The notes: generated from the sequence alone by a model not told the origin. A stretch of DNA of 63,947 bases, filler included, from Folioceros fuciformis (GCA_049999805.1; 12 parts of 12 records of this genome joined end to end with filler, not necessarily neighbours in it); one strand, 5' to 3'; positions 1 to 46,572 are shown, counted from the first letter of the whole stretch. Numbers and translations are program-made.

Positions 1-3000
1 AGCTTGCACACATGATTTGGATGATCCAAATCCTCATATCCTGGTGGCTGGTCCATGTATACTTCTTCCAGCAATTCTCCATGTAAAAACGCATTCTTCA
101 CATCCATATGATGTAGGACCCAACCTTTCGATGCCGCTAGTGCGATCACGGTTCGAATTGTTGCCATTTTGGCAACTGGACTGAACGTCTCCTCAAAATC
201 TATTCCATATGTCTGGGCATATCCCTTGGCCACAAGCCTTGCCTTGTACCTGTTGATACTACCATCTGCGTTGTGTTTGACCTTGTACACCCATTTGCAA
301 CCTATTGGTTTCTTGCCTTCAGGTAGTTGTACTAGGTCCCATGTTGCATTCTGATTTAACGCATTCATTTCTTCATCCATAGCATGTTCCCACTTTGTGT
401 CTCCAATAGCTTCTTCAAAGCTTCTTGGTTCCACATCCTGTACAACCTTTGCCATATAGGCATGGTGCTTAGCTACATAGCTATCATAGGTCAACCGCTG
501 TATTGGAACCTTCTGCCTTCCAGATCTCCGTGGGATTGAACCACTTCCAGGGGCTGATTGAACCTCTTTTGCACCAGGTGTTTCGATTTTCGGTACACCG
601 AATTCCTCATCCAAGCTCTGCTCAGAGTCGCTTACATCATCCGCACCTGCACTTAGGTCTGGTATCTTTGAATCCTGGACTTTTTCCTTCCCTTTGCGAG
701 ACACAGCTGTGGAGCTCGTAGGACTCACACTACCTCGCAACCTGCCACTCCATGGATTCTGAACATTTGTCGAGTTTGATGACGCTTGCGGTCCACTCAA
801 CACTTGTGATTGTTGACCTGCATTGCTTGTTACCTCAGTTTCAAGCACATCAGCTACACTACTTCCTTGTACTTCAAAGTACCAGCTACCCATTTCATCA
901 AAGACTACGTCTCTGCTTACTCTCATAGTCCGTGTACTGGGATTGTAGCACCTGTATCCTTTCTGTGTAACAGAATACCCAATGAAGACACACTTTTCTG
1001 CTTTTGGATCAAGCTTAGTCCGCAACTCATCCGGAATATGGACATAAGCAATGCAACCAAATACCTTTAAGTGTGACAAGTCAGGTTTCTTCCCTGTGAA
1101 CTTCTCCTCCGGTGTTACACTGTGCACCGCTGCTGTGGGAGTTCTGTTCATGATGTACACTGCTGTGCTTACAGCTTCAGCCCAATAGTAGTGAGGCATC
1201 TTCTTCTCTGTCATCAAGGCTCTCGCCACTTCTGCTATGTGCCTGTTCTTGCGCTCTGCAACTCCATTTTGTTGTGGCGTATAACGACATGAGTACTGCC
1301 GTTGAATGCCCTGTTCTGATAAGAATTTGCTGAACTCTCTGGAGAAGTACTCTCCCCCTCCATCAGATCTTAGGCATTTGATGTGCCTACCTGTCTGCTT
1401 CTCAACCATCGCCTTGAAAGTATGAAAATGAGTGATCACTTCACTTTTTTCTTTCATGAAATAGACCCACACCTTCCTTGTGTGGTCGTCAATGAAGGTC
1501 ACATAGTACTTGCAGCCTCCGATTGATGCAGTCTGTGTAGGACCCCATACATCTGAATGCACGACATCCAACACATATCTGCTGACATGTTTGTCATGGG
1601 GGAACGCATTCCTAGGCTGTTTCCCAAGTTGACATGCTTCACATATACCTTGCAGTCCATTTTCTGTAAGCTTGGGTATGCCTGTGACAACCTTCTGATG
1701 CTGCATGGACTTCAACTTCTGCACATTTACATGTCCAATGCGTTTGTGCCACATCTCTAGGTCTGTCACTACCCTTGTACCCTTCGCAAACATGGCTGAC
1801 TTCAGCTTAGGAACCTCCACGTTCAAGGTGAACATCCGTCCAACCTTCTGTCCTTGAGCAATCAGGCGACCACCTTTCTTGCACTCTTCAACAAAGAGTC
1901 CTGCAGGTGTAAATCTAACCTGCAGTCCTTGCTCAACCATCTGCCCAACTGACACCAAGTTCTTTGTGATGTTGGGTACGTGAAGAACATCTACCAGGCA
2001 CTTCACTTTGCCATCCTGCATCTTCACAGGTACAGTTCCTGTATGCACAATTGCATGTGTTGTGTCATCTCCAGTTTCTACATATCCAGGTTTGTCAAGC
2101 ACTTGCATTTCTTTGAACCACTCCCCATGGCATGTCATGTGGTTCGAAGCTCCTGAGTCCACATACCACACAATCTCACCATTGTTGGATCCATTAGCAG
2201 ACATAGAGTTAAGCATATGCTGCATGACAAACAAGTTTTCTGAGTCATTCTGACTGCTGCTAGAGGCATAATTGTTCTGCTGCCTCCTGTTGCCTTGATT
2301 TCTCCTTGGACAGTCTCTTTCGAAGTGGTCTAACCTACCACAAGTCCAGCAACCACTATTGTCTGCATTTGCATCATTTTGTTGTTGATTTCCACGTCCT
2401 CTTTGACTCCCCTAGCCTCGAGAATTTTCTCCTCTTCCACGTGTACTCTTGTACTGGGACTCCTGATTCTGTTGTTGATTTTGGTAGGGATTCCGACCTC
2501 TACCACCTCTTTGCCCTCTGCCACCTTGGGCTCTACCTCTGCCTCTGCCAGAGTAGAAGGCCTGCTCAGAGTTTTCCTTAGGCTTAGAGGATGATTCCTC
2601 GCCTAGGTTTTTCTCCTCTATGATCAACATAGAAATCAGGTCTGAGAAATTGGGAATGTTTTCCCGAGTCTGTATGGAAGTCTTGAACTGCTTGTAGGCA
2701 GGTGTTAACCCGCGCAAGCAAACTTCGACCTTGTCATCATCTTCCACACTGACACCAATGGACGCAAGGGATTCCACTATCCCTTTGATCTTTAATGCGT
2801 ACTCATTGATTGATAAGTTCTTCTTCATAACTGTGTTGAAGTCATTCTTCAACTGCAGTTTTCTCGCCTTCGTGTTAGTCTCATAGAGTTTTACCAACTC
2901 ATCCCATGCTTCTTTGGGCGACTCTGCATCCTGTATGTGCCCAATCATGGTGTCATGAATGCTGATTGACAGCCAATACATGACCTTCCGAGATCCTTGA

Positions 3001-3197
3001 CTCCAATCCTTCAGCGCCTTAATCTGCTCCGCTGTTGCATTCCGTTCAAGTACTACAAGGGGTTTTTCATGCTCCCCCTCAATGTAGTCCCAATAACCCT
3101 TTCCCATAAGAAAGTTTGTAAAACGAAACTTCCAGGCATGGAAGTTGTTTTTGTCCAGCTTCTCCTGTACGATCTGGTTAATACTGTCACTGGCCAT
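1..3197 (-). pseudogene. copia A gag-pol with one premature stop
   Basis: ATG at 3197; TAG at 2412-2414 where the other copies read TGG; the frame continues to the window edge. Confidence 0.85.
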
Positions 3198-3748
3198 TCT
3201 TGCCACCACTCAAGGTTGACACTCAATCCTTTCTTGAGTACTCACACTTGATAAATGTCTGAAAGAACCAAACTGCTTCTGACTGGAGTTTTACTCACAA
3301 GACCTTAAGTCTCTTCTTCCTAAGAGCAATCTAGTGCGGAATCACGCTGCCTTGCGTGAACCAGATTGTCTCATGCTCCGTGTCCTTACAGACTCTTGAC
3401 TGTCTGCCCACAAAGCTCCCGCGAGATTTCCTGTCAATTCCTTCCCTGCTGCCAAGCTAGGGTTAGCACACTTTCTTGCAGCTGCTGAGGCTATTGCAGC
3501 TGTTGCCTCCACTTGTCAGCCCTTCCACAGAGCTCTGGGGATCAACAGCTAGTCCAGTAAGCTGACAGGGCCTTGTCGCCCTTCTCCTCACTTCCTGCAC
3601 ACACCGATATGAGAGTTAGCTGCCGGGACGCTTGCTGCCGATCTCCCTCCAAGCTGCTCCAACTTCTCGTAGCTGCTCTAGCTTCTGGTGTGCACTCTTG
3701 CTGCCTCTTGCAGCACCTCCTACGCCGATCTTGCACCGCCTGCACCGG

Positions 3749-3760
3749 GCTCTGATACCA
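3749..3760 (-). promoter_or_regulatory. Primer-binding site (tRNA-iMet) of copia A
   Basis: Minus strand TGGTATCAGAGC directly after the LTR. Confidence 0.92.
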
Positions 3761-4058
3761 TGTCAATAGGATCGACTCCAATCTACGTGCAAGTGTAGGA
3801 GAGGAGAGGAGAGGAGAGAAGAGAGGGTGGTATTGGTGATCACAACCATGAAAACAATACACATCACCGCTGTCTTACTATGGAGGTCCGAGGTCTCCAT
3901 TTAAGTAGTACATTTAGGGCTACACAACTTCCAGGTTCAATATGGGATAATCTACACTATCCTAAGTTCACTAATAACTAGAACTAGTCTAGTATGAACC
4001 CAACTGGGATAACTAACACCACATGAGTTTAGCTCATATAGAGCTCGATAACTCAACA
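3761..4058 (-). repeat. 5' LTR of copia A (298 bp, TGTTGA...TTGACA)
   Basis: TG...CA ends; right edge fixed by resumption of gypsy sequence (ctcttgacccaaatcc) matching the copy near 52610; left 20 bp repeated at 55470. Confidence 0.88.
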
Positions 4059-5060: not shown

Positions 5061-5160
5061 NNNNNNNNNNNNNNNNNNNNNNNNNNNNNNNNNNNNNNNN
5101 NNNNTTAATTAATTAANNNNNNNNNNNNNNNNNNNNNNNNNNNNNNNNNNNNNNNNNNNN
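5061..5160. other. Artificial contig linker (six-frame stop TTAATTAATTAA within 100 nt); also at 18214, 22087, 28973, 40634, 42474, 46473, 53376, 55490, 61459, 62742; plain 100-N gap at 5586-5685
   Basis: Identical N-padded linker repeated 11 times. Confidence 0.97.
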
Positions 5161-5772
5161 TAGAAATCATTAATTAATGTTCTTTAATATACATTTCAGA
5201 TGTAATTGATCAACATGTTGATTTAATCTGCATATTCATTTAATCAAAAAACGAGGTGCACCGAGGCATGAGGAAGGCTCTGGAGTGAAGGCAGAATCCC
5301 GGTGGCCGTTTGAGGCCACCTGCTGCCCGGAGTGCAGGAGGCTCCAGCAGTGCCTTGCTCAGGCTGTGGCAGCAATGGCGGCATCACGAGGCGCCGTGGG
5401 TGCCAGGCCGTGGGCTGTAGGCGATGTGGGCGCACCAGAGCGACGTAGCAAGCGCGGGCGGAAGGCGCCAGACCGTGGGGGCGTCGCCACGGGCACAGTG
5501 GGCTCGGACGCCGTGGGCGCCGCCGGCACCAGTCGTGAACGTGGGTGTCGAGCGCAATAGGTTAGGACGTGGGCGTGGGCGAATTNNNNNNNNNNNNNNN
5601 NNNNNNNNNNNNNNNNNNNNNNNNNNNNNNNNNNNNNNNNNNNNNNNNNNNNNNNNNNNNNNNNNNNNNNNNNNNNNNNNNNNNNGTCGTGAGGGTAACT
5701 TTCAGAGTCTATATTACATTTTCAATCGTTTTCTAACTAGCCTTTTTACTTGATGTGTATTGATTTTGAAAT

Positions 5773-14421: not shown

Positions 14422-14573
14422 TGTTAGCAGCCTAAAGTTTAGGATTGTGAATAGTCATGACTCTTGACATTTTTGTATATAAGATATATCAGTGCTTAAT
14501 TTAAGAATCCTTTTTTTTTTGGCAATTGAGTGAGCATGCGTTGCTCTCAAAAACTTTAACATGGTATCAGAGC
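14422..14573 (+). repeat. Short 5' LTR (about 140 bp, TGTTAG...TTAACA) and PBS of copia C
   Basis: TGGTATCAGAGC at 14562-14573 directly after TTAACA; left edge inferred from the terminal inverted repeat only. Confidence 0.75.
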
Positions 14574-18213: not shown

Positions 18214-18313
18214 NNNNNNNNNNNNNNNNNNNNNNNNNNNNNNNNNNNNNNNNNNNNTTAATTAATTAANNNNNNNNNNNNNNNNNNNNNNNNNNNNNNN
18301 NNNNNNNNNNNNN

Positions 18314-22086: not shown

Positions 22087-22494
22087 NNNNNNNNNNNNNN
22101 NNNNNNNNNNNNNNNNNNNNNNNNNNNNNNTTAATTAATTAANNNNNNNNNNNNNNNNNNNNNNNNNNNNNNNNNNNNNNNNNNNNTATAATATAACCCT
22201 AATCTCATTATGCCAACATCAATACTCCTTCACTCCCACTTGTTGGATTATGACGATTCGGACGTCTCCTCTTCGCCTTCTCTAACACGGGTCGAGTGTG
22301 AGACTGTGAGCTGAGCTGAAAGCTCCGCTGTGTGCATGTACTGGGTTGCGCCGACACCTTTGCCTTTAAAGAAACGCGATGGAGCGTATCTGCACAAACT
22401 TGGGTAGCAGGTGCGTCGCGACCCTTATAGCATCCCTCCTCGCTTCAAGTCCTTTATTTGTAAGCTGTTGGAGCGTAGGATCTCTGAGCTCAAG

Positions 22495-23365
22495 ATGTCG
22501 TCTTCAGCTACTGACTCCCCTCCTGCAAAGCGCCGTGTCTGCCATCGTGACAAGCTAGGGCGGTTTGTGAGCAAGCCGACTAGAACAGCCGCCTCCTCTC
22601 AGCAGCAAGGATCGGCAAAGATGCCTGCTCCTGCTGCTCAAGGTGGCAGCGGCGGAAGGCGTTCGCGAGGGAGGCCGCGCGGCACCACCAAAGCTTTTCT
22701 TGATCAGCGGCGCTCGTCAGAGACTACAGCCTATAAGACAAAGGCTGCTGTTGCGTGTAAGGCAGCTCCCCGCAAGACGGCTACCCCTAAAGAGAAGTCT
22801 CTTTCAAGGGATCAAAGTGCCAAGTTCCGCTTCAAAGCTGGTGAGTTCGCGTATGCTGATTCTGACTATAGGCCTACTGTGCCGATAAGATTTCCAGTTC
22901 CTACACACTCTGATGAGGAAACCAAGATTGTGAGCCTTGGTTCTTTTGCTATTCCTTGTACCCCTCTGTGGTATAAGTGCCCTTACACCCATCTGAAGAT
23001 GATACGAGTGAGGATAGAGCACTGCCGCGAGTATCAGCGCCATGTGGTCAGCTTTTACAGTAAGTGTTCCCTGTCTACTTTTATGTCAGCATCCCCATTG
23101 CTTTCTTCTCACAGTTCTCTAACAAGCTCCCACTTGCCCTGCAGGATCTGAACTAAGGCTGGAGGAAGAGCACAGCCTTGAGACTGAGGAGAGGATCTCC
23201 TACGTGGAGCGTAGGAAGAGAAACTCTCCAAGATCGGATGAGAGCTTCACCACTCCTTCCGAACATGATCCTGATTCCTCTGAGCCTGATTCCTTTGGCA
23301 GTCGTGCAAGTGTGGCTGTAAATAGTGTGGAAGAAAACAGCGTAGACTGGGGATATGACTGGTAG
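22495..23365 (+). CDS. Predicted two-exon antisense accessory gene of copia E (261 aa; NLS-like, AT-hook, acidic tail); exons 22495-23059 and 23145-23365
   Basis: GTAAGT donor at 23060, CTAAC branch site at 23119, TGCAG acceptor ending 23144; the phase-1 splice keeps the frame open to TAG at 23363-23365; motifs PPAKRR and RSRGRPRG. Confidence 0.72.
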
Positions 23366-23374
23366 TTTGGGTCA

Positions 23375-26300
23375 CTAAACTGCAGGACTGAGGAAGTCAT
23401 TCGGCTTCCCCATTCCTAAACATTTCATGTGCCTCTCGTGCAGCTCCCTACCTAGGGCTTTTGTCATAATATCTGCTGGATTTTCTGCTGTTGGCACATA
23501 CTCAAGTATAACCTGTCCACTCTTAATCAAGTCTCTGATGAAATGATACTCCACCTCAACGTGTTTTGTCCGTGAGTGATGCACAGGGTTTTGTGCAAGG
23601 TTTATAGAACCCTGACTGTCTGTTTTGATCACTGTGCAGGTGGGGTGAGGTAGTCCGAGTTCATTGAAAAGCAGCTTGCACCAAGCAATTTCTTTAGAAG
23701 CGGCTGTGAGGACACGGTACTCGGCTTCTGTGCTTGAAAGAGCAACCGTTGGTTGCTTCTTGCTGGACCAACAGATTGGTCCCCCAGCAAACATGACGAT
23801 ATATCCAGAGACAGATCTTCTACTGTCTATGTCACCAGCGTAGTCTGAATCGGTATATACATCCAGTTCAAGGGAGGCATCAGGTTTGTATTTGTAAACG
23901 ATTCCATACTGTGCTGTCCCCTTTAAGTATCGAAATACCCTCTTAACACAAGTCCAGTGCTCCTGTGCAGGGTTTTCCAAGTATTGTGAGAGCACACTTG
24001 TGGAATATGCCACTTCAGGACGAGTAGTGTTTGCTGCATATATGAGCTTTCCTACTGCCTTGCGGTAAGGGATAGGAAGCATTTTGTCCTTTTCAGCTTG
24101 CGTTTGTGGGCTCATGGATTTGCTGAGCTTAAGTCCACTTGGTAGAGGTGTGACTGCAGGCTTTGCATCCTTGAGTCCAAGCTGGTCTACGCTATCAAGA
24201 AGGTATCTTGGTTGAGTGAGAGTTAAAACTCTTTTCTTTCGATCTCTCTGAATATGAATGCCAAGGCAGCTTTGTAAAGCTCCTAAGTTTGACATATCGA
24301 ACTTCTTGGATAGGAGGCCATTAATTTTTGTGATAAAGGAGGGACTGTTACATGCGAGTATCAAGTCGTCCACATACATAGCAAGGTAACATACAGTGTC
24401 TCCAGCCCTATAGACATACAGGCTACTGTCTGAAACACATTTGATGAAGCCTAAAGCTCGCAGTTCCTCATCTAAGACTGCATTCCATTCAAGAGCTGAC
24501 TGTTTTAAACCATACAGGGTCTTGATTAGGCGAAGAACATGGTCCTCTTTTCCCTTTACTACGTAGCCCATTGGTTGCTGCATATAGATTTCAGTATCCA
24601 GCTTGCCATGTAAGAAGGCTGTTTTGACGTCAAACATTTCCAACTCATAGTCATGGTGTGCTGCTACTGCGCAGAGAACACGAAACGTGGCTAGCTTCAC
24701 CACAGGAGCATAAGTTTCCAGATAATCCAGACCTGGTACTTGGGAGAAGCCACGAGCAACGAGTCTGGCTTTGTACCTATCAAAGGTACCATCTGCTTTA
24801 ACCTTGAGTTTAAATACCCATTTACAGGACACCATTTTGCGTCCAGGAGGTAATTTTGCGAGTTCCCAAGTGCCATTCTTGATGAGGCTGTCATACTCAG
24901 ACTGAACGGCCTTTTTCCACTCTGCAGCATCTGGCCTACTCATAGCTTCTTCATAGGTGCGAGGCTCTGTAGGGTCCAGACTCATAGCATTAGCACGTGC
25001 TGAACTTGACCAGAAATCATGTGATTGATAGTAATCAGGTGCACGTCTTTCTCTTGCAGGGTATCGACGTTCAGGTGGGGGTTCAGGATGTGGTAGCTGT
25101 TCAACTGCATCAGCATCATCATCACTGTCCAGAACAACGGCTGCATCGTCTGCAACGTCATCATAATCTGGATCTAGTATGTCCGGTTCTGGTTGTAGCT
25201 CAACAGCAATGGGAGGTTGCTGCTGCTGCTCATCAAGGTCAGCAAAAGCATCGTCCTCTGCTGGGTCAACTTGATTAACTTGATTATCTTGATTATCATG
25301 CTCATCCCCCCCTGCAGGAGCAATCTCCTCAGGTGTTGAGTCATCAAAGAAAGTGATATTGGGGAGAACAGACAGATCATCACTATCATCTGGAGTGGGA
25401 GGTGTTCCCACTGGCGTCCAAACACGTCCTTCGTCAAAGGTAACGCTTCGTGCATATACCACCTTGTTCTGAGGGACATCATACAGTTTATAAGCTTTTA
25501 TGCCCTCAGTGTAGCCTATCATAAGGAGTTTTCTGGCTTTTGCAGATAGCTTCTTACGCTTCTCCTTCGGGATGAAAGCATAAGCGATACAACCAAAGGT
25601 TCGAAGATGAAGGATAGACGGTTTCCTGCCAAAGAAAGCCTCATATGGCGTCTGACCGACAACTGCAGTGGTAGGTAATCTATTTCGTAAATACACAGCT
25701 GTCATTAGGGCCTCAGCCCAATAGGGCAATGGTAAGGTAGCCTGATGCAGCAAGGAGGAAACCATCTCCTGCAAAGTCAAATTCATGCGCTCTGCAACGC
25801 CATTTTGCTGTGGTGTATACACGACGGTGAGTTGGCGCCCAATACCCTCCTCTGCACAATATGTTTGAAATTCGTTAGATGTGAATTCTCCTCCGTTATC
25901 GGAGCGGAGGGTCTTGAGCTGTTGTCCTGTCCATCTCTCAACAAATTTTAAATAAGTTTTGAATTGAGAGAAGGCTTCACTTTTGGCCTTCAAGATATAA
26001 GCCATGACAAACCTTGTCTTGTCATCAGTGAAGGTTAAGAAATACTTGCCACCACCTATGGAAGGCTGTGACAGTGGCCCACAAATATCAGTGTGGACTA
26101 GCTCGAGGACATCAGAGGCTCTGTGTGGGGTCCTGTTTTTGAAGGCTGCTTGGTGACGCTTAGATAACACACAAGCTTCACACAGGGGTAAGGTAGGAAG
26201 AGTGCCAATCTTTCCATCATAGTATAGGTCACTGGTAGCCAGTTTTTGCAGCTTAGCACCATGTGGATGACCTAACCTATTGTGCCATAATATGGCTTTG

Positions 26301-27733
26301 TCTGTTTGATGTGAAGGTGAGAGGTCACCTTGTGACGTCAAGTGGGACTGCACAGGGATACTGTGCAAGTGAAGTCGGAATAGATCATGGTCAGAAGATC
26401 CATAAGCTAAAACCTTGCGATGATCAAATGCATCAAGGATCTGGCACTCTGTGGGGGTAAACAGAATGTGACTGTTGTTGTCTATGTTCAGTTGCCTGAC
26501 AGAAATGAGGTTCCTAGTCATTCCAGGCACATAGTAAACATTGGTAAGGGACAGTTTTAGCCCTGAAGGGACAGGAAGGAACACTGTGCCCTTTCCTGGA
26601 GATACCAATGCCCTGTCATCACCTAAATAGACAAACTGATCCTTTACTTGTCTGTAGGTGGAGAAGGCACTTCTATCAAAGCAAATGTGCGCTGTTGCAC
26701 CTGTGTCTAAGTACCACTCTTGAAATGGTCTAGACTCTGCTATGGCAGATAAGCATGTGGGAAAGACTAGAGGTTGAGCAAACTCCCTTACCCCTACTGT
26801 CAGGGCGGAAGGAGAGGATTGCTTCTTTACTACAACGTGTGTTTCAGCATTTGCATTGCCCTCCTTGCGAGGTATGCCAGCCTGCTTCTTACGACACTCG
26901 TTTTCCCAATGGCCGGGAATTTTGCACCAGTTGCATTTCCCGGTCTTCTTGGGTTTCTTCTGTGAGGAAGCTCCCTGTGAGCTCCCTGCAATAGGTGTAG
27001 TATTTTTGCCTCTAGGGTATGGTTTGTTTCCTCTGCCCTTCTTTGAGGTGTAGAGTGCTTGCTGTTTCCCATGCTTAGGTCCACCTCTCGTGGCTTCTTC
27101 TTGAAGAAGTGCTCCCACTAACTCAGAAAAGGTCATGGGAGGTAGCTTGATCCTGGCTGCAGATGCCAGTTTCTGAGCTTGTGCCTGTGAGGTGTTATAA
27201 GAAGTCACAAAATTCGACCAGGAGGCAGGTAAAGAAAGCATTAAATAAAGTGCTAACATATCTTCCTTGATGGCTTCCTGTGTTGTTCCTTCCAACTTAG
27301 AAACAAGATGTCTGAAAGTAGCAATGTGCTTTTCTACTGAGTCACCATCTCGCATCTTGCAGAGTTGAAGGTTTTTGAGGGCTGCCATCTGACTGGTTGA
27401 ATTTCCACCAGAGTAAAGCTCACGAAGTCTAGACCAGATATCTGATGCAGATACTGCTCCTGAAGTGTGCCTCAACATTTCAGAGGTTAGGCCACACCGT
27501 ATCATGTACATGGCTGCGTCATTTCTGACTGTCCATGCCTTGACAGTTGCTGCATCATCTGTATCTAACTTATCATCTCCGGTTGTTACATCCCAGAGTC
27601 CTCTGTTCTGAAGAGCACCCTGCATCCTCATTACCCAGATATCGTAATTCTCCCCTCCGAACCTGTCCTTTTCCTTAAACATGTCACTGCCTATGTTATA
27701 GGACAGTTTGGGTGTGGTATCTTCGTCACCCAT
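23375..27733 (-). CDS. copia E Gag-Pol polyprotein (1452 aa, uninterrupted)
   Basis: Gag, CNWCKIPGHWENEC, WYLDTGATAH, LWHNRLGH, HTDICGP/RSDNGGEF/QNGVAER, YVDD, YTDSDYAGD, NPADIMTK. Confidence 0.97.
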   Translation of the reverse strand: MGDEDTTPKLSYNIGSDMFKEKDRFGGENYDIWVMRMQGALQNRGLWDVTTGDDKLDTDDAATVKAWTVRNDAAMYMIRCGLTSEMLRHTSGAVSASDIWSRLRELYSGGNSTSQMAALKNLQLCKMRDGDSVEKHIATFRHLVSKLEGTTQEAIKEDMLALYLMLSLPASWSNFVTSYNTSQAQAQKLASAARIKLPPMTFSELVGALLQEEATRGGPKHGKQQALYTSKKGRGNKPYPRGKNTTPIAGSSQGASSQKKPKKTGKCNWCKIPGHWENECRKKQAGIPRKEGNANAETHVVVKKQSSPSALTVGVREFAQPLVFPTCLSAIAESRPFQEWYLDTGATAHICFDRSAFSTYRQVKDQFVYLGDDRALVSPGKGTVFLPVPSGLKLSLTNVYYVPGMTRNLISVRQLNIDNNSHILFTPTECQILDAFDHRKVLAYGSSDHDLFRLHLHSIPVQSHLTSQGDLSPSHQTDKAILWHNRLGHPHGAKLQKLATSDLYYDGKIGTLPTLPLCEACVLSKRHQAAFKNRTPHRASDVLELVHTDICGPLSQPSIGGGKYFLTFTDDKTRFVMAYILKAKSEAFSQFKTYLKFVERWTGQQLKTLRSDNGGEFTSNEFQTYCAEEGIGRQLTVVYTPQQNGVAERMNLTLQEMVSSLLHQATLPLPYWAEALMTAVYLRNRLPTTAVVGQTPYEAFFGRKPSILHLRTFGCIAYAFIPKEKRKKLSAKARKLLMIGYTEGIKAYKLYDVPQNKVVYARSVTFDEGRVWTPVGTPPTPDDSDDLSVLPNITFFDDSTPEEIAPAGGDEHDNQDNQVNQVDPAEDDAFADLDEQQQQPPIAVELQPEPDILDPDYDDVADDAAVVLDSDDDADAVEQLPHPEPPPERRYPARERRAPDYYQSHDFWSSSARANAMSLDPTEPRTYEEAMSRPDAAEWKKAVQSEYDSLIKNGTWELAKLPPGRKMVSCKWVFKLKVKADGTFDRYKARLVARGFSQVPGLDYLETYAPVVKLATFRVLCAVAAHHDYELEMFDVKTAFLHGKLDTEIYMQQPMGYVVKGKEDHVLRLIKTLYGLKQSALEWNAVLDEELRALGFIKCVSDSSLYVYRAGDTVCYLAMYVDDLILACNSPSFITKINGLLSKKFDMSNLGALQSCLGIHIQRDRKKRVLTLTQPRYLLDSVDQLGLKDAKPAVTPLPSGLKLSKSMSPQTQAEKDKMLPIPYRKAVGKLIYAANTTRPEVAYSTSVLSQYLENPAQEHWTCVKRVFRYLKGTAQYGIVYKYKPDASLELDVYTDSDYAGDIDSRRSVSGYIVMFAGGPICWSSKKQPTVALSSTEAEYRVLTAASKEIAWCKLLFNELGLPHPTCTVIKTDSQGSINLAQNPVHHSRTKHVEVEYHFIRDLIKSGQVILEYVPTAENPADIMTKALGRELHERHMKCLGMGKPNDFLSPAV

Positions 27734-27859
27734 GTTTGTAGGATTTAACAGACACTAATGTGTGAAGTTGTAACCTGTGCTGTGCAGGTTAATCACAACA
27801 GAGTTCTAGGAACAGATGTTAGGGGACAAATGATACCTGGTTCATGAAGACATCAGCAA

Positions 27860-28567
27860 TCACAGAACATAAACAGGGTTTGAAACTCTGCACTGTGCTG
27901 CTGTTGAACTGTTTTCTAGTTTTAAATGCCTCATCTTCCACTTATTGTTTGCGTGGGTGGAGTATGATGGGCAACAATTGGGTGCATCAAATCTGTGACT
28001 TCTGTTTGTCTTATTTGTATGCCTGCGTAATACTCCAGAATGAGGGGAATTAGCAAGCAAATGTGATCTCGACAAAGTCAACAGTTTGAAATTCAGGTGA
28101 GAGATTTGTTCTTTCAGACTTTGAATACCAGCACTAGACTCAATAAGGCGTCGAATGACACTGCCATGATTTCTTTTTATGTGGTTTTGATATGATTCAA
28201 GCCTGGTTAGTAACTGAAAAATCCCTGTGTCTGATGCAGCATGTGTTGTGAGAAGTCCCCTATGATTAGGGTTACCACCAGAAGATCGTTGCAATCGCAC
28301 CACTTGTGGAATCGACTGTCTGGGAAAGTAAGGAGCAAAAGTCAAATATCTCTGACCAGGGTAGAGAGTCTCCACTATTGTATTGAAGGCCTCCTGTAGG
28401 TTTCTGCAGAGATCAGGCAGATCTTGATTGCGCAACAGCCATGTCACAATGTGTTGATGGATGTACTCAACAAGATTGTGCCTGTTTTGATTTCCATTTT
28501 GCTGCCTCCTGTTGTTGTTTGCACGCTCAACAGGAATGCGCCAGACATTGTTTCCATTGGTAGCCAT
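27860..28567 (-). CDS. Extra upstream ORF of copia E, 235 aa, function unknown
   Basis: ATG-initiated intact ORF between PBS and gag; N/Q-rich start, heptad-like segment IQSLKEQISHLNFKLLTL. Confidence 0.6.
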   Translation of the reverse strand: MATNGNNVWRIPVERANNNRRQQNGNQNRHNLVEYIHQHIVTWLLRNQDLPDLCRNLQEAFNTIVETLYPGQRYLTFAPYFPRQSIPQVVRLQRSSGGNPNHRGLLTTHAASDTGIFQLLTRLESYQNHIKRNHGSVIRRLIESSAGIQSLKEQISHLNFKLLTLSRSHLLANSPHSGVLRRHTNKTNRSHRFDAPNCCPSYSTHANNKWKMRHLKLENSSTAAQCRVSNPVYVL

Positions 28568-28914
28568 TTACGGCTAAATTTGTAGAAGCTTGTAAAATGC
28601 AAATTATATGCATTTCTGTAAGCTATTCTCTATAATTTTCAGAAATCTGTATGCAAGATCTGCGGTTGTTCTAGTGTACCTCTACCAGAATTGCCTAAGG
28701 CAATCTGACTAGAGATGCACTGGAACAAGATCCAGGTTTAGCACATCTCCTTATAAAATATAAAGAAAATTTCTACAAGAATTTTAATATGTTCTTTTCT
28801 TTTCTCAAAAAGAAACCTAATTTCCTTTTGAAAGAAAGCAAAAGAGACATGATTGTGCATGAAATTAAATGCACAATCTAATGTACACTCATGTGAATGT
28901 AACCTACATCAGAA

Positions 28915-28926
28915 GCTCTGATACCA
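28915..28926 (-). promoter_or_regulatory. PBS (tRNA-iMet) of copia E
   Basis: TGGTATCAGAGC preceded by ...TTCTTA. Confidence 0.92.
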
Positions 28927-29072
28927 TAAGAAATTACATGCAGATGTAGATTTATTATAAAAATAACATTGTNNNNNNNNNNNNNNNNNNNNNNNNNNNN
29001 NNNNNNNNNNNNNNNNTTAATTAATTAANNNNNNNNNNNNNNNNNNNNNNNNNNNNNNNNNNNNNNNNNNNN

Positions 29073-32000
29073 AGAAAACTGCAGTTGAAGAATGACTTCA
29101 ACACAGTTATGAAGAAGAACTTATCAATCAATGAGTACGCGTTAAAGATCAAAGGGATAGTGGAATCCCTTGCGTCCATTGGTGTCAGTGTGGAAGATGA
29201 TGACAAGGTCGAAGTTTGCTTGCGCGGGTTAACACCTGCCTACAAGCAGTTCAAGACTTCCATACAGACTCGGGAAAACATTCCCAATTTCTCAGACCTG
29301 ATTTCTATGTTGATCATAGAGGAGAAAAACCTAGGCGAGGAATCATCCTCTAAGCCTAAGGAAAACTTTGAGCAGGCCTTCTACTCTGGCAGAGGCAGAG
29401 GTAGAGCCCAAGGTGGCAGAGGGCAAAGAGGTGGTAGAGGTCGGAATCCCTACCAAAATCAAAAACAGAATCAGGAGTCCCAGTACAAGAGTACACGTGG
29501 AAGAGGAGAAAATTCTCGAGGCTGGGGGAGTCAAAGAGGATGTGGAAATCAACAACAAAATGATGCAAATGCAGACAATAGTGGTTGCTGGACTTGTGGT
29601 AGGTTAGACCACTTCGAAAGAGACTGTCCAAGGAGAAATCAAGGCAACAGGAGGCAGCAGAACAATTATGCCTCTAGCAACAGTCAGAATGACTCAGAAA
29701 ACTTGTTTGTCATGCAGCATATGCTTAACTCTGTGTCTGCTAATGGATCCAACAATGGTGAGATTGTGTGGTATGTGGACTCAGGAGCTTCGAACCACAT
29801 GACATGCCATGGGGAGTGGTTCAAAGAAATGCAAGTGCTTGACAAACTTGGATATGTAGAAACTGGAGATGACACAACACATGCAATTGTGCATACAGGA
29901 ACTGTACCTCTGAAGATGCAGGATGGCAAAGTGAAGTGCCTGGTAGATGTTCTTCACGTACCCAACATCACAAAGAACTTGGTGTCAGTTGGGCAGATGG
30001 TTGAGCAAGGACTGCAGGTTAGATTTACACCTGCAGGACTCTTTGTTCAAGAGTGCAAGAAAGGCGGTCGCCTGATTGCTCAAGGACAGAAGGTTGGACG
30101 GATGTTCACCTTGAACGTGGAGGTTCCTAAGCTTCATGAAGTCAGCCATGTTTGCGAAGGGTACAAGGGTAGTGACAGACCTAGAGATGTGGCACAAACG
30201 CATTGGACATGTAAATGTGCAGAAGTTGAAGTCCATGCAGCATCAAAAGGTTGTCACAGGCGTACCCAAGCTTACAGGAAATGGACTGCAAGGTATATGT
30301 GAAGCATGTCAACTTGGGAAACAGCCTAGGAATGCGTTCCCCCATGACAAACATGTCAGCAGATATGTGTTGGATGTTGTGCATTCAGATGTATGGGGTC
30401 CTACACAGACTGCATCAATTGGAGGCTGCAAGTACTATGTGACCTTCATTGACGACCACACAAGGAAGGTGTGGGTCTATTTCATGAAAGAAAAAAGTGA
30501 AGTGATCACTCATTTTCATACTTTCAAGGCGATGGTTGAGAAGCAGACAGGTAGGCACATCAAATGCCTAAGATCTGATGGAGGGGGAGAGTACTTCTCC
30601 AGAGAGTTCAGCAAATTCTTATCAGAACAGGGCATTCAACGGCAGTACTCATGTCGTTATACGCCACAACAAAATGGAGTTGCAGAGCGCAAGAACAGGC
30701 ACATAGCAGAAGTGGCGAGAGCATTGATGACAGAGAAGAAGATGCCTCACTACTATTGGGCTGAAGCTGTAAGCACAGCAGTGTACATCATGAACAGAAC
30801 TTCCACAGCAGCGGTGCACAGTGTAACACCGGAGGAGAAGTTCACAGGGAAGAAACCTGACTTGTCACACTTAAAGGTATTTGGTTGCATTGCTTATGTC
30901 CATATTCCGGATGAGCTGCGGACTAAGCTTGATCCAAAAGCAAAAAAGTGTGTCTTCATTGGGTATTCTGTTACACAGAAAGGATACAGGTGCTACAATC
31001 CCAGTACACGGACTATGAGAGTAAGCAGAGACGTAGTCTTTGATGAAATGGGTAGCTGGTACTTTGAAGTACAAGGAAGTAGTGTAGCTGATGTGCTTGA
31101 AACTGAGGTAACAAGCAATGCAGGTCAACAATCACAAGTGTTGAGTGGACCGCAAGCGTCATCAAACTCGACAAATGTTCAGAATTCATGGAGTGGCAGG
31201 TTGCGAGGTAGTGTGAGTCTTACGAGCTCCACAGCTGTGTCTCGCAAAGGGAAGGAAAAAGTCCAGGATTCAAAGATACCAGACCTAAGTGCAGGTGCGG
31301 ATGATTCAAGCGACTCTGAGCAGAGCTTGGATGAGGAATTCGGTGTACCGAAAATCGAAACACCTGGTGCAAAAGAGGTTCAATCAGCCCCTGGAAGTGG
31401 TTCAATCCCACGGAGATCTGGAAGGCAGAAGGTTCCAATACAGCGGTTGACCTATGATAGCTATGTAGCTAGGCACCATGCCTATATGGCAAAGGTTGTA
31501 CAAGATGTGGAACCAAGAAGCTTTGAAGAAGCTATTGGAGACACAAAGTGGGAACATGCTATGGATGAAGAAATGAATGCGTTAAATTAGAATGCAACAT
31601 GGGACCTAGTACAACTACCTGAAGGCAAGAAACCAATAGGTTGCAAATGGGTGTACAAGGTCAAACACAACGTAGATGGTAGTATCAACAGGTACAAGGC
31701 AAGGCTTGTGGCCAAGGGATATGCCCAGACATATGGAATAGATTTTGAGGAGACGTTCAGTCCAGTTGCCAAAATGGCAACAATTCGAACCGTGATCGCA
31801 CTAGCGGCATCGAAAGGTTGGGTCCTACATCATATGGATGTGAAGAATGCGTTTTTACATGGAGAATTGCTGGAAGAAGTATACATGGACCAGCCACCAG
31901 GATATGAGGATTTGGATCATCCAAATCATGTGTGCAAGCTGAAAAAAACGTTGTACGGATTGAAGCAAGCCCCGAGGGCTTGGCATGAGCGTCTTGCTCA

Positions 32001-32718
32001 GCATCTGATTCACATCGGATTCAACATGGCAGATGCGGATCATTCGTTGTATGTGTGCAAAAGTACAAAACGACTGGTCTTTGTGACCATTTATGTGCAT
32101 GATCTAATCATTGGAGGTAATCAGTTGGATCAAGTGGAGCAGATCAAGGAACTTCTACAACAAGAGTTCAAGATGGCGGACCTAGGTGAACTGAGGTTCT
32201 TTTTGGGCATTGAAATTATACGAACCAACACAGGCATTTGGCTGTCACAGCGGAAGTATGCGTCGGATGTACTAACTAAGTATGGTATGGTTGAGTGCAA
32301 GCCAATCTCGATTCCTTTGGATCAAAATCTAAAGCTCAGTGCTCATGATGGTGAAGCACTTGAAGATCCAACAATGTACAGGAAGATTGTGGGTAGCTTG
32401 ATATATCTCACTCTATCCCGACCAGATTTGAACTATACAGTGGGATTGCAAAGTCAGTTTATGCAGGCGCCAAGAAAGCCACATTTGGATGCAGTAAGGC
32501 GAACGTTGTGCTATGTGAAGGCAACTATGGATCATGCTCTCTTTTATGTTGCAGATTTAGAAATAAACCTGTGTGGATACACAGATGCAGATTGGGCAGG
32601 CAGTGTTACTGATCGTAGATCTACAAGTGGATTCACTTTTTCACTTGGGAGTGCAGCAATTACATGGAGTAGCAAGAAGCAGCCTACAGTGGCTTTGTCT
32701 AGTACAGAAGCTGAATAC
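29073..32718 (+). mobile_element. copia A copy 2 (gag to mid RNase H), pseudogenised and 3' truncated
   Basis: Near-identical to 1-2860; 4-bp insertion at 30133-30136, CAG>TAG at 31588, YVDD>YVHD; homology stops after STEAEY. Confidence 0.94.
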
Positions 32719-40733: not shown

Positions 40734-42473
40734 GCACTCAACCATACCATACTTAGTTAGTACATCCGACGCATACTTCCGCTGTGACAGCCAAATGCCT
40801 GTGTTGGTTCGTATAATTTCAATGCCCAAAAAGAACCTCAGTTCACCTAGGTCCGCCATCTTGAACTCTTGTTGTAGAAGTTCCTTGATCTGCTCCACTT
40901 GATCCAACTGATTACCTCCAATGATTAGATCATCCACATAAATGGTCACAAAGACCAGTCGTTTTGTACTTTTGCACACATACAACGAATGATCCGCATC
41001 TGCCATGTTGAATCCGATGTGAATCAGATGCTGAGCAAGACGCTCATGCCAAGCCCTCGGGGCTTGCTTCAGTCCGTACAACGTTTTTTTCAGCTTGCAC
41101 ACATGATTTGGATGATCCAAATTCTCATATCCTGGTGGCTGGTCCATGTATACTTCTTCCAGCAATTCTCCATGTAAAAATGCATTCTTCACATCCATAT
41201 GATGTAGGACCCAACCTTTCGATGCCGCTAGTGCGATCACGGTTCGAATTGTTGCCATTTTGGCAACTGGACTGAACGTCTCCTCAAAATCTATTCCATA
41301 TGTCTGGGCATATCCCTTGGCCACAAGCCTTGCCTTGTACCTGTTGATACTACCATCTGCGTTGTGTTTGACCTTGTACACCCATTTGCAACCTATTGGT
41401 TTCTTGCCTTCAGGTAGTTGTACTAGGTCCCATGTTGCATTCTGATTTAACGCATTCATTTCTTCATCCATAGCATGTTCCCACTTTGTGTCTCCAATAG
41501 CTTCTTCAAAGCTTCTTGGTTCCACATCCTGTACAACCTTTGCCATATAGGCATGGTGCCTAGCTACATAGCTATCATAGGTCAACCGCTGTATTGGAAC
41601 CTTCTGCCTTCCAGATCTCCGTGGGATTGAACCACTTCCAGGGGCTGATTGAACCTCTTTTGCACCAGGTGTTTCGATTTTCGGTACACCGAATTCCTCA
41701 TCCAAGCTCTGCTCAGAGTCGCTTGAATCATCCGCACCTGCACTTAGGTCTGGTATCTTTGAATCCTGGACTTTTTCCTTCCCTTTGCGAGACACAGCTG
41801 TGGAGTTCGTAGGACTCACACGACCTCGCAACCTGCCACTCCATGGATTCTGAACATTTGTCGAGTTTGATGACGCTTGCGGTCCACTCAACACTTGTGA
41901 TTGTTGACCTGCATTGCTTGTTACCTCAGTTTCAAGCACATCAGCTACACTACTTCCTTGTACTTCAAAGTACCAGCTACCCATTTCATCAAAGACTACG
42001 TCTCTGCTTACTCTCATAGTCCGTGTACTGGGATTGTAGCACCTGTATCCTTTCTGTGTAACAGAATACCCAATGAAGACACACTTTTCTGCTTTTGGAT
42101 CAAGCTTAGTCCGCAACTCATCCGGAATATGGACATAAGCAATGCAACCAAATACCTTTAAGTGTGACAAGTCAGGTTTCTTCCCTGTGAACTTCTCCTC
42201 CGGTGTTACACTGTGCACCACTACTGTGGAAGTTCTGTTCATGATGTACACTGCTGTGCTTACAGCTTCAGCCCAATAGTAGTGAGGCATCTTCTTCTCT
42301 GTCATCAATGCTCTCGCCACTTCTGCTATGTGCCTGTTCTTGCGCTCTGCAACTCCATTTTGTTGTAGCGTATAACGACATGAGTACTGCCGTTGAATGC
42401 CCTGTTCTGATAAGAATTTGCTGAACTCTCTGGAGAAGTACTCTCCCCCTCCATCAGATCTTAGGCATTTGAT
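40734..42473 (-). mobile_element. copia A copy 3 (integrase-RT contig, frame open)
   Basis: Near-identical to copies 1 and 2; YVDD intact. Confidence 0.95.
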
Positions 42474-43389: not shown

Positions 43390-46300
43390 CTACTCGTTGA
43401 TGTCAGTGGGCAATTCGTAGTCACTATCTCCCTTGACCTCAGCCCCACTAGATCCAGAAGGCCCATCTTCATCATTCGAAGCGTCTTCTACTTTGATCCT
43501 TCGTTTGATTGTCGTAGAGTGAATGGTTTTGAACCTCTTGCAATACTCAATGGTGTCGAGGGGGTTCTTGGCATGCAAGGGGTCTTGATGTGGCGATAGT
43601 GCAAACGGCTGCATGACAGCTTTCCGTTTCAGGATTGGTTCTGTTGGACGTGTAGGTCCTACCGTACTAGGTGCATTGCCTACCGCAGTCTCTAATTTAA
43701 TGTAAAGCGCAGTTTTTGCCTTGCACGACGACAAATTATGGTGAGGAGGAATTCCAGAGTGGTTCCTGATTAGAGTGGAAAGAGGCAAATTTCCATCACT
43801 AGAAACATTGTCAGACTCGGCTTCTGCTGCTCGGGGTCGTACCTGCTTTGAAAGGGAAACCAAACCATGGGAGGATTTCAAGTTGGTTCGTGTTACATCT
43901 ACGGGAGAGCTTCCAAAGAGAGACCGCGACGCAACACCATGCAAGGGGGCTTGTTCTTTCAAAGCTGAAGAGTTTTTCCTCGGGAAGTGCAGGCCGGGTA
44001 GGGGACTTAGAGTGCCCTGAAGACCATCATCTTCTATTTTCTTCCCCTTCAGAAGTGTGCTATCCTCGTCAATTGGTACTCCTCTTGTTTCCTTCAAAGC
44101 TGTCATAGGATGAAGATTGGGGAGGTTCAATTCCGGAACATCTTCCTTTGGAAGAATGTTTTGACTATTGAGGAGGCCATCCCCATTCAAGTAGCGGGAT
44201 ATAGGTAGCGTGTCATCCGCATTTTCAGCAGCAGTATCATCATCCGAAAAGAAATCATACTCATTGCCTACGCCATGGTGGATGTTTGTGGTCCCCGTTG
44301 GCGGGCCACTATCAATGGCATCGTCTAGGAGTTCTGGATTGTAATTGGCATCCACATCCGAACTGAAACCGTTGGAGTCTTGAGAGTTATTTGATGAAGG
44401 TGCTTGCAGGTCTTCTAAATCCAAGTTCTCCGCGTACCACCTCTTTTCGTCCGTCAACTTTCCATTGGCGATCAACTTTGAATTTGTATAGACGTACACC
44501 AAGTCATTTGCTCTTTGAGGTAGTAGCCTATTTCGTACTTTGTTATGCACAAAGGAATAGCTACTCCAATTGCGTTCACAAGAAGAGGAGGATAGCGTTT
44601 GGGCTAATATTCTCTTTGCAATGGGTGCAAGGAATTTCCCACAAGCACCTTCAAAATCCCACCAAGCGTGTGGAGAACACTTTTGCTGTTTAGGATCCAA
44701 CATGTCATGAAAGGGCGGACTTCTGTGTCGAAATGCTATGAACTCGTTTACCACATCTGGGTAGTTCTCAGGCGTACATAGCTTTCTGAGTACCCGTTTG
44801 CAGGCGGTGATGGCGTCCGCATCGTCAGCCAAGTCTTTGTCATCAAGCAAATATGGATTTAGGAGTGCTCCAGCGGAATGTAAGTCCGTTGTGATCATCC
44901 TCTTGCGGGTGTAGAAGTCCCGCTCAGCAACGTCCGCTAAATCGGTAGCAAGATTGAATGGCTCATGGCGTAGCGCAAGAACATGCTTCTCAAGGTTGCG
45001 GAGGATGTGCAAACCTTTGCCCATACATGGTTCCTTGGCATCAAACTCCCGTAGAGCATACACTATAGGTGCAACCATCTCCCGAAAGTTTGTGCACCGC
45101 TCCCAGAAGTGGTCATTCTGAACGAGTCTCTTGACGTTGCGAGATAAGGTGCGTGCTTTATCTTTACGGCTATCACGAAGCTTGGTCACATATGCCAACC
45201 AATCTGGATCAACAACACTCTGCTCCAGGGCTGCTCGGACCTTAAGTAAGCGATCAACCATTATGAAATTTGATGCAAATCTAGTTTGCCCAGGCAACAG
45301 CAAATTGAACTTTGCCTCGTGTTTACGAAACACGGCGAGGGGCATTTGGCGATTCCTTACAAACTTCACCAAGTACTTAGCCTTGCGCACAGCTTCTTTT
45401 ACCCATGTTGCCTTCCCCCAGTCCTCCAACAATAAGTCCATGGCGTGTGCAGCACATCCTTGAATATATATGTGGGGATATTTCTGTGTGACAATTTGTG
45501 AGGCCTTGAGCATTGAACTTGCATTGTCAGTGCAGACTTGGACGATATTGTGAGGGCCAACTTGATCAATGAATTTGTCCATAATCGAGGCCATGTATTC
45601 AGCAGTCTTTTCTTTGCCCGTAGTATCCACAGATCCCAAGAAAAGCTCACCAGCTGGAGACACAAGCATTGCATTGCATAGAGGTCGACTACTGACGGAG
45701 GTCCATCCGTCTAGGGCTAGTGTTCCTCCAAACTTTCGAACGGTCTCGGCCGTTCTATTATTGAGGTCCGCTTCCAAATCAGTCTTCGCTTGCACGAGCA
45801 ACCTTGTGCGAACATCATGGTAAGAGGGTGGAACATATGGTTTTCCAAAGGCGGCAGTCTTCATCACTGCTTCCTTGAATGCTCCATTCCGCGCTATTGC
45901 AAATGGAACATTGGCCTCATAAAAAAACCTAGCCCAGAGTTTGTCTAGCTCGCGGCGCTCCACCTCTTGAAATCCCTCGGAGAGAATAGATTGCCTCAAC
46001 AATCGCGGACCGGTGCTACCTATACTTCCATATTCGCTCGATGGGAGAAAAGGGAGGGTCGGTTCAACCGTATCTGCTCCTGAACTTGTCCTGGGAACTT
46101 GAGTAGATCCTACACAAGAATCTCCACCTGTGGACTTGGGTGTGCTGTGTTCCGTATTAGACGGAGTTTCCAATGTTGGGGTGGTAAATCGTTGAGGAAG
46201 AAGTTCTCCGCTATGACGAGGATATCGCCCACCACAATTTCTAAACAGAGAACGTATGGGCGGTGTCAATTTGGCGCAGAGGCTGACACCACTATTGCGC

Positions 46301-46455
46301 TTGCCAAGGACTTCTTCGTAGCCAAGATGACTGAGTTGTCGTTCCAGCTTTCTGGCATAGGTCTTTAGACAAAGACTGCACTGAAGGGAATCAGTCTTTC
46401 TCCCAAGTACCTCTCTTATTTCCTTATACCAAGGGGACCAAGGTTTTGTAGCCAT
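43390..46455 (-). CDS. hAT transposase, 1021 aa (BED-like zinc finger, DUF659-type core, hAT dimerisation domain, long C-terminal extension)
   Basis: QCSLC..SHL..C, LALDGWT, VQVCTDNA, CAAHAMDL, TRFASNF, AWW..SSSSCERNWS..RNRL; uninterrupted ORF; TIRs not visible. Confidence 0.93.
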   Translation of the reverse strand: MATKPWSPWYKEIREVLGRKTDSLQCSLCLKTYARKLERQLSHLGYEEVLGKRNSGVSLCAKLTPPIRSLFRNCGGRYPRHSGELLPQRFTTPTLETPSNTEHSTPKSTGGDSCVGSTQVPRTSSGADTVEPTLPFLPSSEYGSIGSTGPRLLRQSILSEGFQEVERRELDKLWARFFYEANVPFAIARNGAFKEAVMKTAAFGKPYVPPSYHDVRTRLLVQAKTDLEADLNNRTAETVRKFGGTLALDGWTSVSSRPLCNAMLVSPAGELFLGSVDTTGKEKTAEYMASIMDKFIDQVGPHNIVQVCTDNASSMLKASQIVTQKYPHIYIQGCAAHAMDLLLEDWGKATWVKEAVRKAKYLVKFVRNRQMPLAVFRKHEAKFNLLLPGQTRFASNFIMVDRLLKVRAALEQSVVDPDWLAYVTKLRDSRKDKARTLSRNVKRLVQNDHFWERCTNFREMVAPIVYALREFDAKEPCMGKGLHILRNLEKHVLALRHEPFNLATDLADVAERDFYTRKRMITTDLHSAGALLNPYLLDDKDLADDADAITACKRVLRKLCTPENYPDVVNEFIAFRHRSPPFHDMLDPKQQKCSPHAWWDFEGACGKFLAPIAKRILAQTLSSSSCERNWSSYSFVHNKVRNRLLPQRANDLVYVYTNSKLIANGKLTDEKRWYAENLDLEDLQAPSSNNSQDSNGFSSDVDANYNPELLDDAIDSGPPTGTTNIHHGVGNEYDFFSDDDTAAENADDTLPISRYLNGDGLLNSQNILPKEDVPELNLPNLHPMTALKETRGVPIDEDSTLLKGKKIEDDGLQGTLSPLPGLHFPRKNSSALKEQAPLHGVASRSLFGSSPVDVTRTNLKSSHGLVSLSKQVRPRAAEAESDNVSSDGNLPLSTLIRNHSGIPPHHNLSSCKAKTALYIKLETAVGNAPSTVGPTRPTEPILKRKAVMQPFALSPHQDPLHAKNPLDTIEYCKRFKTIHSTTIKRRIKVEDASNDEDGPSGSSGAEVKGDSDYELPTDINE

Positions 46456-46572
46456 TTCGGTGAGTTAAGTAGNNNNNNNNNNNNNNNNNNNNNNNNNNNN
46501 NNNNNNNNNNNNNNNNTTAATTAATTAANNNNNNNNNNNNNNNNNNNNNNNNNNNNNNNNNNNNNNNNNNNN

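Follow-up and report, generated by a model that had tools for sequence, protein, structure and literature searches.

The window analysed here, the whole stretch of 63,947 bases, contains a Ty1/copia-type retrotransposon and, convergent with its pol gene, an open reading frame (ORF) on the opposite strand; both lie on one 6,786-base contig (22187-28972). The antisense ORF spans the spacer between pol and the candidate polypurine tract (PPT), from ~50 nt after the PPT to 9 nt before the pol stop, and carries a candidate intron. It is located downstream of pol, upstream of the 3' long terminal repeat (LTR) and on the opposite strand, which is the position of the extra ORFs classed as aORF-3R or eORF-3'R. 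That it lies antisense between pol and the PPT had been put forward in a first-pass annotation of this DNA and could be read directly here, the PPT itself being a candidate.

The antisense ORF starts with an ATG at 22495 on the plus strand, in the context AAGATGT with A at -3. Exon 1 (22495..23059, plus strand) provides 188 codons and the first base of codon 189. It is followed by the candidate intron, 85 nt long and in phase 1 (23060..23144, plus strand), which has a GTAAGT donor, the branch-type signal CTCTAAC at 23117-23123, a pyrimidine tract and a CAG acceptor; the branch A lies 22 nt from the acceptor G, and the intron end reads ...TTGCCCTGCAG. Exon 2 (23145..23365, plus strand) encodes a 72-codon acidic tail closed by the stop TAG at 23363-23365. 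Splicing as predicted from these consensus signals would yield a coding sequence of 786 nt and a protein of 261 residues, whereas the unspliced frame ends at 23149-23151 after 218 residues. The ATG, the intron with its donor, branch signal and acceptor, the 261-residue product and the 9-nt gap to the pol stop were all in the first-pass annotation and were read again directly from the window. Two other readings of the spacer were rejected: an alternative acceptor at 23114 leads straight into an in-frame TAA, and the longest open stretch on the minus strand, in the sense orientation of the element, is only 93 codons.

We consider it unlikely that this arrangement is merely an accidental or relic frame next to splice-like signals that arose by chance, in a spacer that is non-coding 3' internal sequence and gives no product. 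When the 1188-nt spacer was shuffled with its dinucleotides preserved, 1 of 3000 trials gave an open frame of 247 codons, and 24 of 3000 gave one of at least 188 codons. Among the 42 frames of at least 150 codons in the window, the antisense ORF was the only one that could be extended through an intron, extension being defined as a gain of at least 60 codons across an intron, 45-200 nt long, of the form GTRAGT..CTRAY..YAG. In the 64 kb, each strand has a single instance of the strict pattern GTAAGT..CTAAC..YAG, and the one on the plus strand is the candidate intron. Composition breaks exactly at the intron, which is 33% C and 35% T (68% pyrimidines) with 14% G, compared with 26-30% G in the flanking exons. 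Codon periodicity is found in both exons. Under a codon-position model of pol, the proposed frame of exon 1 outscores the other two (+4.2 versus -23.4 and -25.1 bits), and so does that of exon 2; the latter also ranks first under the model of exon 1 (+6.3 versus -7.6 and -22.3 bits), so that the frame of exon 2 agrees with the periodicity of exon 1. The only tandem repeat is a 15-nt unit in 1.9 copies at 23266-23294 in exon 2, and the long frame is therefore not a tandem-repeat by-product. A chance origin would nevertheless be favored by the low-complexity character of the sequence, which is rich in Ser, Arg, Ala and Pro, by the absence of a homologue, a fold or expression evidence, and by the post hoc nature of the p-values, the most striking frame having been picked from 64 kb before it was tested. 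Against this stands a conjunction of features that is hard to get by chance. Taken together, the chance tests, though post hoc, argue strongly that a real gene structure exists here or did so recently.

The element that carries the antisense ORF has an uninterrupted gag-pol ORF of 1452 residues on the minus strand (23375..27733), with its stop at 23375-23377 and the order gag, protease region, integrase, reverse transcriptase (RVT_2), RNase H region. Pfam matches were obtained to Retrotran_gag_2 (residues 37-216), Pol_BBD (340-416), gag_pre-integrs (451-525), rve (544-641), SH3_retrovirus (701-772) and RVT_2 (953-1197). On this predicted domain order, with the integrase upstream of the reverse transcriptase, the polyprotein is of the Ty1/copia (Pseudoviridae) type. 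In a search of 5.8 billion proteins, the nearest relatives of its pol shared no more than 50% identity across the reverse transcriptase-RNase H half; their sources are plants, oomycetes, a green alga and metagenomes, and the element family is thus without a close described relative.

Upstream of gag-pol, at 28915-28926 on the minus strand, lies the 12-mer TGGTATCAGAGC, which we take to be complementary to the 3' end of tRNA-Met and hence a tRNA-Met-type primer binding site (PBS) of copia elements. The 12-mer is found four times in the window (3749-3760, 14562-14573, 28915-28926 and 55458-55469; 0 expected by chance), each time upstream of a different copia gag-pol ORF, and there is no tRNA gene within the window. 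At the other end, the candidate PPT, GAAGCGAGGAGGGA (22433..22446, minus strand), is followed by TG (22432-22431) and lies ~50 nt from the antisense ATG; other purine-rich runs lie beyond it at about 22266-22284 and 22224-22236, with no second LTR to fix the boundary. As predicted features, the PBS and the candidate PPT fit a Ty1/copia element. The presumed start of the 3' LTR (22187..22432, minus strand) is cut by the contig end; on the plus strand it lies upstream of the antisense ATG and is the presumed promoter region. No direct repeat of at least 20 nt, and so no LTR pair, occurs within the contig 22187-28972, which ends ~46 nt past the PBS and 245 nt past the candidate PPT, the pattern that a break of the assembly within the LTRs would produce. 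The element had been described as intact; because both LTRs are cut off by the contig ends, that description holds for the 1452-residue gag-pol and the PBS only.

DNA reads were used to gauge how common the antisense ORF is. Two runs of one sample cover the stretch almost completely. In run X1, whose contigs were placed at 85% likeness and for which contig depth is a poor measure, near-identical contigs with a depth of about 210-250 occur beside diverged ones (87-91% identical) with a depth of about 8-14; by identity, 47 of the 243 X1 contigs are at 99% or above, 25 at 95-99%, 56 at 90-95% and 115 below 90%. This depth pattern suggests a collapsed young multi-copy family together with older copies. 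Summed X1 depth is 255-435 in the bins of the antisense ORF and 245-480 in those of pol, i.e., the two are equally abundant, and the ORF region is therefore not a one-copy insertion. Two joints in run X1, both without microhomology, touch the ORF. One (22245/23046) skips 800 bases at a depth of 104.8 with a shorter side of 22 letters and spans most of exon 1; the other (22981/23382) skips 400 bases at a depth of 10.7 with a shorter side of 30 and covers the end of exon 1 through exon 2. Variants that lost the ORF by deletion could explain them, as could mapping noise, and the joints are too weak for calling variants. The splice joint 23059/23145 was absent from runs X1, X3, X4 and X5, which says nothing about expression; run X5, guessed to be RNA, yielded only 2 short unrelated pieces.

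The predicted product has a marked charge layout. Residues 1-110 are very basic (isoelectric point (pI) 11.65; 26 Lys + Arg versus 6 Asp + Glu), residues 111-188 contain a block of Cys, His and aromatic residues, and residues 189-261 are acidic (pI 4.47); within the product of exon 1, an N-terminal part rich in Ser, Ala, Arg and Pro precedes the Cys/His/aromatic block. At residues 9-15 (22519..22539, plus strand) lies the short basic patch PPAKRRV, which we take to resemble a nuclear localization signal (NLS) by its likeness to the SV40-type motif. The tetrapeptide RGRP (residues 58-61, 22666..22677, plus strand), within GGRRSRGRPRGTTK, resembles the core of an AT-hook. AT-hooks are defined by a GRP core preceded by R and flanked by basic residues, and RRSRGRPRG at residues 55-63 conforms to this definition as a motif match only. 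RGRP appeared in 1079 of 100000 shuffles of the product (1.08%) and [RK]xRGRP[RK] in 30 of 100000 (0.03%), and RGRP is unique among the 23,388 residues of the window's open frames of at least 100 codons. The Cys/His block, as read from the translation, is C155-x6-C162-x3-H166-x9-H176-C177-x5-H183 (22957..23043, plus strand). Along with RDKLGRF and the acidic tail RSELRLEEEH...VDWGYDW, the motifs listed in the first-pass annotation (PPAKRR, RGRPR and the Cys/His block) are all present in the translated product.

The reading that we prefer, with a probability of about 45%, is that the antisense ORF is a lineage-specific accessory gene of the aORF-3R type, belonging to a young, multi-copy Ty1/copia family. 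For the broader proposition that it is now, or was very recently, a genuine protein-coding gene of the element, the odds seem slightly better than even. A specific nuclear DNA-binding role of the product, as its motifs might suggest, is doubtful.

Several lines of evidence weigh against this reading, beginning with the protein itself. Homology searches used exon 1 and exon 2 separately rather than the joined 261-residue product. Neither exon had a Pfam match even at E ≤ 10. Thus, no match to the AT_hook family was reported for the exons, Transposase_28 (TRP28, PF04195) was not among the results for exon 1 or exon 2 at that cutoff, and there was likewise no zinc finger match, the spacing C-x6-C-x3-H-x9-H-C-x5-H being non-canonical beside those of C2H2 and CCHC zinc fingers. 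A word-indexed protein search gave 0 homologues among 95 candidates. A full HMMER scan of 1,835,955,588 representatives gave 2 matches, both spurious and repeat-driven: a 3464-residue bacterial repeat protein whose score was inflated by 14 stretches, and a 398-residue translated tandem repeat whose score was inflated by 4 stretches. At E ≤ 1, the Protein Data Bank (PDB) search listed only three designed ankyrins (best E-value 0.044), ESM Atlas gave no usable match, and metagenome and viral scans with exon 1 confirmed nothing. The structure prediction that had been suggested as a check was run on exon 1 and gave no usable fold, the AlphaFold2 single-sequence model having a mean predicted local distance difference test (pLDDT) score of 44.9, with low confidence in the Cys/His block; much of the protein looks disordered. 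The earlier proposal of a nuclear DNA-binding factor is therefore left with its short motifs, which are present, while Pfam, the homologue searches and the model gave it nothing; the transactivator, anti-silencing and targeting roles proposed with it are speculation.

The distribution of the ORF also counts against its being an accessory gene. A scan with the pol C-terminus recovered 31 metagenome loci, with a best-segment identity of 26-44% in 30 of them and of 50% over 42 residues in the other (L031); the pol-stop positions of some are disturbed by frameshifts. By tblastn at E ≤ 1, neither exon had a match in any of these distant copia loci. Nine of them extend at least 900 nt past pol, and one of the nine has an antisense frame of at least 120 codons (141 codons), which is unrelated. 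The other copia families in the window also lack such an ORF. The antisense gene would thus be private to the element's own family. Because there is no homologue, there is no evidence of purifying selection, and the intactness of the frame means little if the copies are young.

Codon usage is a further point on the same side. Third-position A is 15-18% in the antisense ORF versus 27% in pol, and GC content is about 50-53% versus 46%; this usage is unlike that of pol and fits a foreign origin. The ORF might instead be a captured or nested host or foreign gene, or part of one, that sits in reverse orientation with its intron as a passive passenger and has stayed intact through recent amplification. 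Both its composition and its third-position usage differ from those of gag-pol, it is an orphan without relatives in related copia elements, and a reverse intron-bearing gene is exactly what survives passage through genomic RNA. The depth data hint at young near-identical copies, so that intactness needs no selection. Transduced ORFs are known in LTR retrotransposons, although, in the accessible text of the source, they mostly have sense orientation and occur in only one copy or a few (PMC7264820), whereas the present ORF is as deep as pol. Nor was a donor gene found in the 1.84 billion representatives, a library that possibly lacks the host's own genes, and the neat filling of the pol-PPT spacer looks integrated rather than like a random fragment. 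On balance we consider capture unlikely, and prefer an accessory gene of the element.

The remaining contrary points concern transcription of such a gene. Four plus-strand ATGs lie upstream of the antisense start (22210, 22250, 22336 and 22379) and would precede it if transcription begins far upstream. In addition, the presumed promoter region is methylated in the sample of run X4, as in silenced transposons. This run shares its sample with X1 and looks bisulfite-like, C>T and G>A accounting for 541 of its 551 changed places. On the minus strand at 22242-22460, 26 of 30 CHH sites (H being A, C or T) were converted among the places listed, compared with 0 of 13 CG and 0 of 9 CHG sites; seven further listed G>A places, at 24256-26917, are all CHH, and all 33 listed are minus-strand CHH. 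The pattern, though drawn only from the places listed, is too clean for an accident of listing and indicates CG and CHG methylation, a plant-type mark of silenced transposons.

This methylation bears as well on the possibility that the antisense RNA is itself the functional product, pairing with the 3' end of the genomic RNA and feeding small-RNA silencing or disturbing reverse transcription, with the ORF being incidental. Methylated CG and CHG sites in this region are consistent with silencing of either the small-RNA-directed or the maintenance kind. Regulatory antisense transcripts have precedents in Ty1 (RTL) and micropia and, in the open text of the sources, have been proposed for plant aORFs (PMC7264820; PMC12786077). 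An RNA-only role, however, needs no 261-codon frame, no frame-restoring intron and no codon periodicity, and seems distinctly unlikely to us; moreover, RNA and protein functions are not mutually exclusive (PMC7264820).

As far as we know, antisense extra ORFs of LTR retrotransposons are widespread, and we know of none whose function is established. Extra ORFs in general occur in most LTR retrotransposon lineages according to the accessible part of a 2025 review. Antisense ORFs between pol and the 3' LTR are described in most copies of Grande, RIRE2, Retand, PvRetro13 and Boty; in the open-access text of the source, these aORFs have no database similarity and no known origin, a regulatory role is proposed for them, and attention to antisense and spliced transcripts is urged (PMC7264820). 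The same text defines an aORF as one that is present in all or most copies of a family and conserved about as well as gag-pol.

Like the present ORF, gene23 of the maize element Grande (Ty3/gypsy, Tat/Retand group) is an antisense ORF between pol and the 3' LTR without database similarity; it is family-wide, its protein is nuclear, and a promoter of its own, located upstream of the ORF, drives its transcription (PMC7264820). Unlike it, gene23 resides in a Ty3/gypsy host, has no intron in the accessible description, and shares no sequence similarity with the present ORF. The antisense ORFs of Retand also occupy the interval between pol and the 3' LTR, are proposed to function in DNA binding and regulation of transposition, and carry Transposase_28, which is probably a DNA-binding domain (PMC11963269). 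They differ in that their interval is 2.9-6.6 kb long, versus 0.94 kb here, that the source places them in a gypsy lineage of eudicots and monocots only, and that Transposase_28 is absent here. PvRetro13-type ORF2 (15 Ty3/gypsy families of common bean) and the ORF of Boty from Botrytis are similarly in opposite orientation from pol to the 3' LTR and without known function (PMC4093653; PMC7264820), but all of these elements are Ty3/gypsy, and the ORFs encode 211-939 residues, some with an SMC-like domain.

Among copia elements, the extra ORFs singled out in the accessible texts are in sense orientation. The two copia families of the bean survey carry sense env-like ORFs (PMC4093653), and the env-like eORF-3'F of the SIRE clade resembles the present ORF in lying downstream of pol in a Ty1/copia element, and differs from it in being in sense orientation (PMC6317226). 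A 2019 survey found extra ORFs of at least 250 codons in 582 copia elements forming 45 unrelated groups, and the text accessible singles out only the SIRE sense ORF among the copia groups (PMC6317226); as an unspliced 247-codon frame, the present ORF falls under the threshold of that survey. Consistent with the background given in the first-pass annotation, the named antisense 3' ORFs are thus all from Ty3/gypsy elements and the SIRE copia ORF is in sense orientation, in so far as the accessible texts go. Searches of open-access full text, which does not cover the orientations of the 45 groups in PMC6317226, found no antisense or spliced extra ORF of a copia element. For an ORF of the aORF-3R kind, then, the copia host and the intron are unusual, and so is a basic/acidic protein with an AT-hook-like motif.

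A likeness of design only, without homology, links the present ORF to HBZ of the deltaretrovirus HTLV-1, a vertebrate retrovirus. HBZ, the product of a spliced gene, belongs to the bZIP class and includes an activation domain, whereas neither a bZIP nor any other domain was detected in the present ORF. Like the gene proposed here, HBZ is an antisense retroelement gene expressed from the 3' LTR, and it acts as a nuclear regulator (PMC7264820; PMC11963269).

The same element has a second extra ORF of 235 codons, on the sense strand (27860..28567, minus strand), in the 1.18-kb leader between the PBS and gag. None of 3000 leader shuffles reached 235 codons, and the leader is long by comparison with those of three other copia elements in the window (about 0.4-0.5 kb). 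The leader ORF had no Pfam match at or below E 0.01, its sole listing being PF02090 at E 0.082, below that family's cutoff; the protein searches gave no homologue, and none of the 31 distant copia loci matched it (tblastn, E ≤ 1). Its AlphaFold2 single-sequence model is mostly helical at low confidence (pLDDT 38.9). It may be a second accessory gene, of the eORF-5'F type. A second improbable ORF in a long leader implies that the family tolerates or uses extra genes.

The other contigs of the window give the setting of the element. Its 12 small contigs are joined by 100-base linkers of the form N44-TTAATTAATTAA-N44, read directly at 5061-5160, 18214-18313, 22087-22186, 28973-29072 and seven more places, and there is one plain 100-N gap at 5586-5685; where two neighboring features fall on different contigs, they have no physical linkage. 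Most of the contigs carry copia-type pol fragments, which belong to several unrelated families and are 23-48% identical to the pol studied here. Certain contigs are near-identical in pairs, at 98-100% identity over 1-2.9 kb: 1-2864 with 29073-31940, 1767-3780 with 53476-55489, 30559-32298 with 40734-42473, and 55590-56632 with 60416-61458. Each pair probably represents copies, or haplotypes, of one copia family that were assembled separately. Apart from copia elements, a 1024-codon open frame on the minus strand (43393-46464) has DUF659 and hAT C-terminal dimerization domains, which suggests an apparently intact hAT-type transposase. A DnaJ-domain open frame lies on the plus strand at 57481-58065 (E 1.2e-15), and DnaJ was the sole Pfam family not related to transposable elements that was matched when 10 long ORFs of the window were scanned.

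If the antisense ORF is an accessory gene, its transcription, splicing, translation, localization, DNA binding and target may be envisaged as follows. Plus-strand transcription, convergent with pol, would be driven by a promoter located at the boundary of the 3' LTR or just within it, and the single 85-nt intron would be removed from the resulting transcript. Since this intron is opposed to the genomic RNA, it would never be spliced from genomic RNA and would be copied faithfully at each retrotransposition; the survival of such an intron, already asserted in the first-pass annotation, follows from the logic of splicing. The mRNA would be translated to a 261-residue protein with a basic N-terminal third (containing the NLS-like patch and the AT-hook-like RGRP), a small Cys/His core and an acidic tail. 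Such a protein would most likely work in the nucleus and regulate the element by acting on AT-rich DNA, a plausible target being the LTR of the element itself.

Taken to its furthest, this scheme would make the copia family, in a genome with plant-type methylation, a 'complex' retroelement. It would have a sense leader ORF and an HBZ-like, intron-protected antisense gene for a nuclear AT-hook protein with an acidic effector tail, which would bind the element's own AT-rich LTR to activate transcription or to counter CG/CHG silencing. We think it unlikely that the scheme holds in this complete form; if it were true, no spliced antisense regulator would have been described for a copia element before this one. 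Should the ORF prove to be a passenger, on the other hand, it would be an ordinary example of gene capture. This compact copia example would be a tractable model, having one intron, 261 codons, recognizable motifs of nuclear and DNA-binding type, an acidic tail and an apparently young multi-copy family. The intron provides a built-in marker, because spliced plus-strand RNA can come only from the antisense gene. The case could thus help test whether antisense ORFs of this kind are retrovirus-like accessory regulators, anti-silencing factors or passengers.

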